Assembly: GCA_965215885.1 (NCBI GenBank)
Contig: CBDCEW010000051.1
Span: forward strand, 1 to 44,702
Source: Candidatus Moanibacter sp.
GTDB lineage: Bacteria > Verrucomicrobiota > Verrucomicrobiia > Opitutales > UBA2987
Reading direction: 5' to 3'
DNA: 44,702 bases
A program made the position numbers. Positions within the stretch are counted from its first letter, which is position 1. The number at the start of each line of letters is the position of its first letter. Below are positions 33,001 through 36,000 of the stretch, piece after piece.

Positions 33001-36000
33001 AGCCCTCCCAGTCATGTTCGGGAGTGAGAATCGGGTTGTTTGGCTCCTTGACGGGTCGATGCATGTGGAATCGAACACTCCGCATAAGGTAGAGTTTGAT
33101 CGAATCGAAGAAGTAGAGTTTCGTGGAGCTCATGCACGTGACGTTGACGGTCGGCTGCGAATCGGGCAATGTTTACCTTCACATATCCCTTAAGAGCGAT
33201 CAAATCGCTGTGATGGATATCAAAAAAATAGGCCTGCTCCCGCTGAATGGGGACAGGTCTGCTACAACGCGGGCTGTGGCAATACAGAGCATCGTACGGC
33301 GGAGAGTCTGGATTGCCTCGTCATTCTTCCTCGCAATGACACGTCTCGCATAACGTGGCGAGTGAGTGATTCATTATTTGAAATTTACTTGAAAATTCTC
33401 CCAGGAGCCTTCAATCCGAATCTTGACTCGCTATCTACATTTCTGCCGCTTTGGACTTTCCTTGGCGATAGCTGCATCGATTCTCCTCTTCGATTGCAGT
33501 CTAGCCAGTGAAACTGACACTGTACAATCTCCCTGGCACCTCGCAGCCCGGGGCTTGATCGAGGAAGCTCATGCGGAGTTTTCGCGGTTGGCAAGCGGAG
33601 GCGGCGACCAACGTGAATCCAGATTTGGTATTGCAATAACGTTATTGAATGTACAACCGAAGACTCGCCGGAATGTCGAAAGAGCTTACCATATTCTGGA
33701 GCAACTAAGGGACGAGGACTCCGCGGACCATTACGGCCTATCCGCTCAATACTTCCTTGCCCGTATTGACCAGATTCATCGCTCCCCTCCCGATCCGGAC
33801 TCCGCTGCGAGGCATTATCTCAGTTTAATCGAGAGACAGAGCAAACACCCGCTCGCCCAATTAGCAGTTATTAAGCTCGGGATTCTCCAGCTTTACAATC
33901 CATCCGCCGAGGACGTCTCCGCCGTTTTTTCTCAGACAGAGAATAGGCTCGATCTCCTTACGGACTCGATCGTGATTCGGGACTTCCATATCCTGCTCTC
34001 TGAAGCATATGAGCGACACAATCTGTCAAAATCCAAGGGCCTGGAGCATCTAATGGCCGCTCAGGAGATCGATCCCGCAATTCGGCTGCTCGACAATAGT
34101 TTCATTATCAGGGTCGCCGATCTGGCAAGGGAACTAGGCGACTATGAACTGTCAATCCGGTATTACCGGGAATTCCTCAATCTATTCCAACGTGACGTTC
34201 GCAGATTTCAAGTGGCACGTACTTTGGAAAGGCTCAGCTCAGTAACAAAGAGTCGTGGGTCTCCGAACACCGAATGAAATGCGTTTGAAATCCGGACTTT
34301 CGATGCGAGCTGGAATCAGTGCGATCTGCCACCGTCTAGGGATGCTGTTTCTCTTCGGCTGTTTTGCTGCTTCCGTTATTTTCATCGTGGCGCGAACGAT
34401 GCGTGAGGACGACTCGGATATGACGACGATTCGCTTCTCCCACTTTCATTTGCACGGGGGATTAAGGGATTCCTATGAGATCATTACACGGGAATACATG
34501 AAGCGGAATCCCGGCACGCGGGTGCAGCAGATTGATGTTCCGATTGGAGTCTTTCCCGCCTGGCTTTCAACGCAACTGGTCAGCGAAGAGGCTCCTGACA
34601 TCATGCTGATCAGCGGCCATTTTACCGATGATCGCCTGGCGCGTTATATTGAACCGATAACCGCTTATCTGGAGCAACCGAACCCCTATAACGCGGGGAC
34701 GGCATTGGAGAACATTCCATGGCGAGAAACGTTCGTCGACGGATTGTATGCCGGGGGAAGCTTTCGTCAGTTTCAGCAACTGCAGGAATATCTGAGCGTT
34801 CCCATAACCGTGCAATCAATCCGTCTTTATTACAACAAGGACCTTTATAAGAGAATCATGGGGGGTGCACCAACACCTTCTACATTCGACGAGTATGTGG
34901 AATTATGTGAGGAAATAGTACGGTTCTCGAACGCTACGGGACAGAAAATCGTCCCAATGGCCGGTTCGAGGTACAATGCAATCCGACTGTTACAAATCCT
35001 CTTTTCCAGTCAAACTCAGATGCTCGCGGCGGATCTTGTCGAACATCGGAACGAACGCGTCGATACGCGTCTAGACGTCGCTTTGGGTTTCCTGAAAGGC
35101 ACCCTTACCCTCAATGACAGATCCCTCCGCGATGCCTGCCAACTTACAAGGGAGTTCTGTCAATACATGCAGGACGGTTTCATGCAAGTTAACAGGGAAG
35201 ACGCAACCTTCCTATTCGCACAGGAACATGCCTTGATGATCGTTTCGGGAAGCTGGGATGTCACGACCTTTCAAACAGAGTGCCAGTTCCCAATTGGCGT
35301 CATTCCGATTCCGTTGCCACAGCGAGACCACCCCGTCTTTGGGAGAAATTTCCTCACCAGGCCAGTTGAATCAGTCGAGGGCGATGGCAATTTCGGTATT
35401 ATGGTCCGATCCAAACATAAGAAGGAAGCGCTCGATTTTCTGCGCTTTTTGACTTCAAGAATTGCGAATCAGATTCTCGCCGATACAAGTGGTTGGGTGC
35501 CTGTCATCGTCGGTGTAGATGTGCCGGAACCGACGAAGCCCTTCCTGCCCTTCGGCGAGGGATTTCTCCCGGGATTCCACTTCACTTACAATCATATCGG
35601 AACAGAGACGACTGGAGTGTTCTATACGTATCTGCATACTCTTCTGGAGCCTGAAGGATCCGTTGATGCCTTCATCGTGGCCGCGCAGGATGAGATGCTC
35701 GAAGCGATGGACAAAGATTTTAGAATGTTCCTCCGGGATCAGAAGAGGAATCTGGCCCGTCTCGACACGTCCATTGCGGCAGGGCGGGAACTTATCGCCA
35801 GCGGAGACGAAGACAAAAATTGGAGCGAGAAGATCTCAAATTCCTACCGGACGCAAAATCAGAGCGAGGGCCGATTCTATTGGGCACAATATGAGCTGCA
35901 GTCTCTCCAGGAAGCTGGGAAAAACTGATGAGAATTCATTTGATGAACTTGCCCAACTTCGGACCCTCTGAGGTCGCCGGGCAAGGGAAGGCTTTGAGAC

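Follow-up and report, generated by a model that had tools for sequence, protein, structure and literature searches.

What might a TPR protein do when its gene stands directly before that of a family-1 solute-binding protein (SBP), and how would such an SBP deliver its ligand when its gene keeps no transporter genes for company? These questions are raised by a 44,702-nucleotide stretch of DNA from Candidatus Moanibacter sp. (contig CBDCEW010000051.1, positions 1 to 44,702), hereafter the window, for which an earlier note had proposed a new two-part periplasmic binding unit. We consider it probable that the pair belongs to an ABC importer for carbohydrates (CUT1) to which a TPR subunit has been added, and that its binding part has multiplied in this genome into exchangeable cassettes served by a common core.

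A TPR gene and an SBP gene lie side by side in a catabolic region

Both open reading frames (ORFs) were found where the earlier note had placed them, on the plus strand. The TPR gene (33423..34277) encodes 284 aa forming 14 helices, with about seven TPR-like hairpins arranged in a superhelix, and an alternative TTG start at 33462 corresponds to the 271-aa database form. All matches of this ORF to TPR domains in Pfam fall below threshold, and its database name is "hypothetical protein." A hydrophobic stretch near the N-terminus (33423..33506, plus strand), which is devoid of a lipobox, is a putative signal peptide, likely of the cleavable Sec/SPI type, with the cleavage site placed from the sequence. 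The SBP gene (34255..35928) encodes 557 aa from a GTG or 541 aa from an ATG at 34303. The latter is the likely start, 541 aa being also the length of database entry P0159, and its numbering is used here. The protein scores above the cut-off for both SBP_bac_1 and SBP_bac_8 in Pfam, and it goes by generic sugar-binding names in databases. The sole region exceeding the hydropathy threshold is an N-terminal helix (34333..34392, plus strand), conserved in homologs, which we infer to be an uncleaved inner-membrane anchor; only a short N-terminus would remain in the cytoplasm.

On the 5' side of the pair are divergent genes (30029..33169, minus strand) for a 520-aa protein with a weak match to the mannobiose phosphorylase family, a DUF6772 protein, and a 118-aa ORF. 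On its 3' side, the catabolic neighbors are two BNR/sialidase-like genes and a PhyH dioxygenase gene (37254..41826, plus strand). The sialidase/sulfatase/PhyH setting described previously was recovered, BNR/sialidase-like, sulfatase, and PhyH genes being among the neighbors at the eight loci where the pair occurs in this genome. Overall, neighbors are varied, from such genes to lyases, GH28, GH116, and housekeeping genes, with more variety in relatives than locally. The local neighbors point to sialylated or sulfated sugars as a candidate substrate.

The window also holds a cell-division cluster, where a Mur ligase is fused to MurB (13104-15443, plus strand), as well as transposases and a catabolic region. 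At 25872-28383 (plus strand), a Kelch/NanM-like propeller fused to a sodium:solute symporter is split into ORFs of 615 and 215 aa, which has the appearance of a disrupted mutarotase-symporter fusion of the sialic-acid type. Insertion sequences abound in the genome, and two 556-aa DDE transposases in the window (23575-25245 and 42059-43729, minus strand) have similar copies flanking other cassettes. A DUF4143 gene in pieces (89 and 118 aa; 36297-36933, plus strand) lies 3' of the SBP gene, while an exact tandem duplication with a spacing of ~247 bp (40870-41363), possibly an assembly artifact, covers the start of the PhyH gene. REP-like short intergenic repeats, direct or inverted, are found at 28382-28501, 29902-30024, 36988-37150, and 40647-40728, and several intergenic spots show high contig depth. 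One RNA run yielded a 205-base contig over the SBP start, although contigs cannot show expression, and a scan for promoters and terminators gave counts at chance level.

The TPR protein is predicted to grip the C-terminal tail of the SBP

The AlphaFold model of the mature TPR protein comprises 14 helices, with a mean pLDDT of 95.8. Its nearest folds are those of OGT, Pins/LGN, and PilW (Z ~16), which are generic TPR superhelices, and the ESM Atlas returned only unnamed TPR clusters. TatT, the TPR protein of the TPAT transporters discussed below, is absent from the fold-match lists, where generic TPR superhelices appear, an absence that would still be compatible with a TatT-like fold with a central pore. 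In the SBP model (pLDDT 94.5), an N-terminal helix (residues 2-35) precedes a core that matches RafE and further oligosaccharide SBPs, which is followed by a helix of 46 residues (454-499) and a return helix spanning 505-537. The last two (35662..35913, plus strand) form the main predicted TPR-binding surface. This helical-hairpin tail of ~75 residues, the extension being the portion past residue ~465, is not matched in solved SBPs, and sequence matches in the PDB end at profile position 476 of 537 or before. In all intact SBPs encoded next to a TPR gene, a conserved ALD motif is followed by 152-221 residues, as compared to 108, 119, 127, and 143 in four TPR-free SBPs, two of them from another subfamily, which were the only such controls found.

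When modeled together (1:1), the two proteins gave a complex score of 0.89, versus 0.23 for the best of three controls, which reproduces the earlier prediction. Of the solved complexes, 116 of 157 attained the mark used, as did 2 of 215 mismatched pairs, although these counts apply only approximately when our own alignments are used. Runs agreed in at least 86% of contacts, with a partner pLDDT of at least 88 and ~145 contacts. The predicted interface involves 55 SBP residues, of which 31 are in the tail (481-537), where they occupy the predicted TPR groove, and 24 are in five core segments (110-118, 145-150, 247-252, 355-358, and 418-422). Binding through the C-terminal helical extension, as predicted in the earlier note, is supported, but the predicted interface is not confined to tail residues 489-538 as it had stated. 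Among the top predicted contacts are those of R86 of the mature TPR chain (Arg114, codon 33762..33764, plus strand; 99% conserved) with SBP D488 (89%), which are among the residues most conserved in either protein, and of K123 (62%) with E522 (82%). On average, however, the interface hardly exceeds the rest in conservation (0.46 within the TPR interface and 0.43 elsewhere), with a p value of 0.07 for enrichment in conserved polar residues, and the alignments behind these figures also served as input to the complex predictor. A strongly conserved TPR motif (mature residues ~46-56) is only partly within the predicted interface and may bind a further partner. The model supports TPR-SBP binding without being a demonstration of it. 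Among PDB sequence and fold matches there was no similar solved complex, and we know of none that resembles this model.

We also considered whether the TPR protein might sit on the "balancing interface" of MalE, as described in the available part of PMC3080849. Escherichia coli MalE aligns weakly (probability 20.7), and its balancing hairpin maps to residues ~261-272, outside the contact segments. Only segment 355-358 lies near a hinge-region strand, and this parallel was not used as support.

The pair is repeated as a cassette in this genome

A phmmer search of 15,568 ORFs from the 6.36-Mb genome bore out the eight loci reported previously, each of eight TPR paralogs lying directly 5' of an SBP paralog on the same strand. 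The loci at C38:8.5k and C81 lie inside a ~17 kb duplicate that is 99.7% identical (L003/L004: C38:1-24.7k, C81:1-19k), which leaves seven distinct loci. This may reflect a recent duplication or co-binned strains. Also within the duplicate are DruA-like regions, either next to DDE transposase domains or fused with them. Two cassettes are broken, as the earlier note had it for these and for the duplicated pair: the SBP on C80 is frameshifted, and that on C72 is both frameshifted and split by a transposase. In addition, the TPR gene at C38:72k is truncated by the contig end. Cassettes are 28-42% identical to one another, with SBPs at 31-39%. Because the genome is 90% complete and 5.5% contaminated, copy numbers of cassettes and permeases are uncertain.

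The ninth, weak homolog that had been seen beside permease genes does adjoin a MalF/MalG-type pair, directly 5' of it (C105:259398-260282). It matches by profile only (E 4.8e-10), with no pairwise alignment to the window TPR, and it belongs to a second, distant TPR-F-G system (L008, C105:257569-266192), in which the SBP gene is inverted and 4.3 kb off.

TPR and SBP genes are paired across the phylum

How widespread is this pairing? A profile search of 401 genomes from across the phylum, with at most five candidates scored per genome, matched 74 at E ≤ 0.001. A single-sequence search of GTDB contigs gave no match, while an alignment-based search did. We inspected the neighborhood of every outside match that reached E ≤ 1.4e-11, 44 in total (41 in wide regions and 3 in narrow ones), and of the weaker L116 and L128. 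The pairing was demonstrated for 44 or more of the 401 genomes and is thus not rare. In one set, all 50 outside TPR genes examined directly adjoin a member of this SBP subfamily in the same orientation (upstream in 46 cases, downstream in 4), and so do the members of two further outside sets (3/3, and 8/8 full-length). The exceptions are the ninth TPR gene described above and a broken TPR fragment in G406. In the reverse test, a TPR gene was adjacent at 19/19 strong SBP matches from five genomes. The TPR family amounts to 513 clusters at 50% identity, and its named relatives in databases come from Verrucomicrobiota, mostly Opitutaceae, plus one Planctomycetaceae metagenome-assembled genome (MAG). 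Two longer family members, P0047 and P0050, have extra N-terminal Peptidase_C39 or CBM9-like regions, which are either real fusions or gene-calling artifacts.

Distances in the TPR and SBP trees are correlated, with rho of 0.81 across 50 pairs and, within one family, of 0.94 across 19 paralogs (permutation maxima 0.17 and 0.42, respectively). This shows duplication as a unit and is not proof of binding, since linkage alone also gives congruence. A search for TPR-SBP fusions among longer proteins yielded one generic TPR match only, which is weak evidence of their absence. That each TPR protein diverges along with its own SBP would also be expected of a transient chaperone, which assists folding of the SBP tail or protects it from proteolysis without being a standing subunit, and the fold neighbors of the TPR protein do include the assembly factors PilF/PilW, BamD, and SprE. 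We nevertheless regard this as very improbable because the SBP alone, tail included, is confidently predicted to fold, and because the predicted interface is so large.

Relatives encode the transporter beside the pair, and its apparent orthologs lie elsewhere in this genome

The earlier note had reported eight loci lacking a local permease or ATPase and had named no transporter. The first point stands, as no ABC permease or ATPase gene was found in the window or in the regions of 11-20 kb around the other seven loci, two of which run into a contig edge next to the module. The second does not, since relatives led us to candidates. In relatives from across the phylum, the pair heads an operon with the order TPR-SBP-MalF-like-MalG-like, with or without a final MalK. 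Both permease halves, often as a fusion, lie 3' of the pair at 18 of 48 outside loci, several with MalK, and 15 of 19 permease loci chosen without an earlier TPR match proved to be TPR-SBP-F-G operons. The remaining four consist of one near a contig end, one with no visible SBP, and the two most divergent, which have a different, TPR-free SBP. Among 32 genomes that match the TPR family at E ≤ 1e-8, 30 contain the permease (E ≤ 1e-45) and the other two contain it in pieces, versus 60 of 401 overall, although related genomes are not independent. In one operon clade (L076, L081-L088, L090, L100, and L116), the MalF- and MalG-like halves are fused into a permease of 630-790 aa.

This genome encodes four CUT1-type permease pairs. 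A relative's operon permease is 67% identical to the pair on C13, 45% to that on C105, and 34-35% to the other two. The C13 pair (C13:27746-29639) has no SBP nearby. When 47 MalG-like proteins were placed in a tree, it grouped at 100/98 support with operon proteins L016, L017, L052, and L062 and stand-alone proteins L091-L095. Operon permeases in this clade belong to near-branch cassettes and stand-alone ones to multi-cassette genomes. The C105 permease, which has its own TPR and SBP, is in a separate clade, where it groups with other families, and this suggests a separate acquisition. On its contig (L009:2394-6922), the C13 pair is preceded, on its own strand, by genes for hydantoinase/oxoprolinase A and B and a short-chain dehydrogenase. 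The sole OB_MalK match in the genome (C48:28839-29960) is found amid housekeeping genes and is 58-66% identical to the operon ATPases of relatives. The components of a CUT1 importer are therefore present: a family-1 SBP, a MalF/MalG-type pair (here in trans, by orthology), and a MalK with an OB domain.

Five relatives with 2, 3, 7, 5, and 2 cassettes have one stand-alone orthologous permease each, at 68-83% identity, the next best being 36% or less. Against sharing, G406, which is from the same family, has an orthologous MalG-like gene interrupted by ~530 bp and two cassettes that look intact, and G401 (93% complete) has a cassette, while the orthologous permease was not found in its assembly. 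G294 has four permease copies, so a single core is not universal. The G406 and G401 exceptions, the lack of a permease at 8/8 loci, and the sodium:solute symporters near two of these would fit orphan cassettes that serve as membrane-anchored sugar sensors or scavengers, or as partners of secondary transporters, with an ABC permease no longer in use. Signaling is discussed for orphan Bug proteins in the accessible portion of PMC5812351. This reading appears quite unlikely to us because the SBP-less permease ortholog is kept at 58-83% identity across genera, versus the 28-42% seen among cassettes within this genome. Moreover, a single histidine kinase was encountered among 93 neighbor ORFs scanned, and the short cytoplasmic N-terminus of the SBP also argues against a sensor.

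A lipobox occurs in the distant branch of the TPR family

By a simple pattern, 14 of 19 distant-branch TPR proteins have a lipobox, versus 1 of 38 in the near branch, so the TPR protein can be membrane-tethered or soluble. No lipobox was found in the window TPR or in those paralogs of this genome that have an N-terminus. The lipobox of the distant branch could mean that the TPR protein has, or once had, an outer-membrane anchor and links the entry of substrate through an outer-membrane transporter to the SBP, as a periplasm-bridging shuttle reminiscent of TPAT, with the 46-residue SBP helix as a strut. The TPAT model itself (PMC5812351, as far as its text was available) offers a precedent, and a TonB-dependent receptor gene lies directly 5' of the C32 cassette, with others near L055 and L068. 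Such a shuttle is compatible with an ABC core and would give the TPR protein a relay role, but we judge it unlikely, given that the window TPR and its paralogs are without a lipobox, that a TonB receptor adjoins only one of eight loci here, and that the TPR groove is predicted to be filled by the SBP tail.

Comparison with known systems

In the TPAT system of Treponema pallidum (TatT/TatP/TatQM), the SBP is bound by a periplasmic protein with TPRs whose gene is part of the transporter operon, according to the part of PMC5812351 at hand. The pair described here likewise involves an extra TPR partner for an SBP, although binding is predicted in our case. Unlike in TPAT, the SBP is of family 1 and not DctP, and the operon permeases are of the BPD_transp_1 MalF/MalG/MalK type and not DctQM. 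TatT is a lipoprotein trimer with a pore aligned with the SBP cleft, whereas a grip on a helical tail is predicted here. Both TPAT partners are lipoproteins, whereas here a lipobox is missing from the TPR and the SBP carries a helical anchor. The window TPR has no match to TAtT (PF16811), and hhalign gave a probability of 0.2 against the genome's own TatT. The pair is thus analogous to TPAT and not a member of it. The two-part nature of the proposed periplasmic unit and its grip on the tail are supported, but its novelty has to be narrowed since a TPR-bound SBP has a precedent in TPAT (PMC5812351, same portion). The new elements are the ABC setting, the dedicated tail of helices, and the layout of many cassettes on one core. 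Two true TPAT loci, with TAtT beside DctP, are found elsewhere in this genome (C41:25934-28337 and C19:10213-11959; L131 and L132).

The system resembles CUT1 importers of the MalEFGK and RafE/Msm type in its SBP fold, its UgpA/MalF- and MalG-like permeases, and its UgpC/MalK-like ATPase. In CUT1 systems, one ATPase serving several permeases is known. Unlike these, the system described here has an extra TPR gene, a helical tail of ~75 residues, a membrane anchor at the N-terminus of an SBP from a diderm, and apparent sharing at the permease level among SBPs that are only 31-39% identical. Many orphan SBPs with few membrane components are also a feature of Bordetella Bug/TctC proteins, for which a poorly specific shared permease was proposed and evidence was said to be lacking, within the excerpted text of PMC5812351. 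Bug/TctC, however, is a tripartite tricarboxylate system of single-gene orphans with no TPR partner, unlike the TPR-SBP cassettes.

SusD of the Bacteroidota SusC/SusD systems is a TPR-containing accessory protein in glycan-utilization loci (PMC13543919, from partial text). Unlike the window TPR, it is an outer-membrane lipoprotein that binds glycans and caps a TonB transporter. Neither the window nor the other loci yielded a Pfam match to the SusD family. The same source, a 2026 review of bacterial glycoside transporters, does not contain "Verrucomicrob" in the main text as available and mentions TPR for SusD only. Judged by titles and abstract openings, no description of a TPR-SBP importer was found in the literature.

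Discussion

The CUT1 importer that we favor builds on the pairing, operons, orthology, copy numbers, and folds described above and on the predicted binding; from these we infer the sharing, the sugar substrate, and the clamp role. Hydrolases encoded beside each cassette would release sugars, and the SBP, tethered to the inner membrane, would capture a sugar in oligosaccharide or modified form. Once exported, the TPR protein would wrap the C-terminal helical hairpin of the SBP and touch its core as a dedicated clamp, stabilizing or tuning it. Each SBP-TPR unit would then bind one class of sugar and hand it over to the shared C13 permease, powered by the single C48 MalK. In most lineages, the two genes share a single operon with those of a MalF/MalG-type permease and often of MalK; here and in several relatives, duplication has placed the TPR-SBP pair, as a cassette, in various catabolic clusters.

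In a bolder version, which we regard as about equally likely to hold or to fail, this would be an undescribed, phylum-wide class of ABC importers with an obligate TPR protein, in which TPR-clamped, tethered SBPs are interchangeable modules on one promiscuous permease and the TPR protein tunes or gates delivery. Because cultured relatives carry the family (Opitutaceae TAV1 and TAV5, by database name), the long-standing proposal of many orphan SBPs sharing one permease lends itself to a clean test.

These findings put a name to a protein family that is large and lacks annotation. If an ABC binding protein carries a clamped-on accessory subunit, the principle known from TPAT would reach beyond TRAP transporters to those of the ABC type. 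Verrucomicrobiota play a major part in the breakdown of complex and sulfated polysaccharides, their MAGs have been reported without SusCD, and how the products are taken up without it is stated to be open (PMC8857213, in the sections available). The TPR-SBP system is a concrete candidate for uptake across the inner membrane in this phylum and, if the bolder version is true, such an importer would be a main path by which complex sugars, sulfated or sialylated, cross the inner membrane in a phylum without SusCD.
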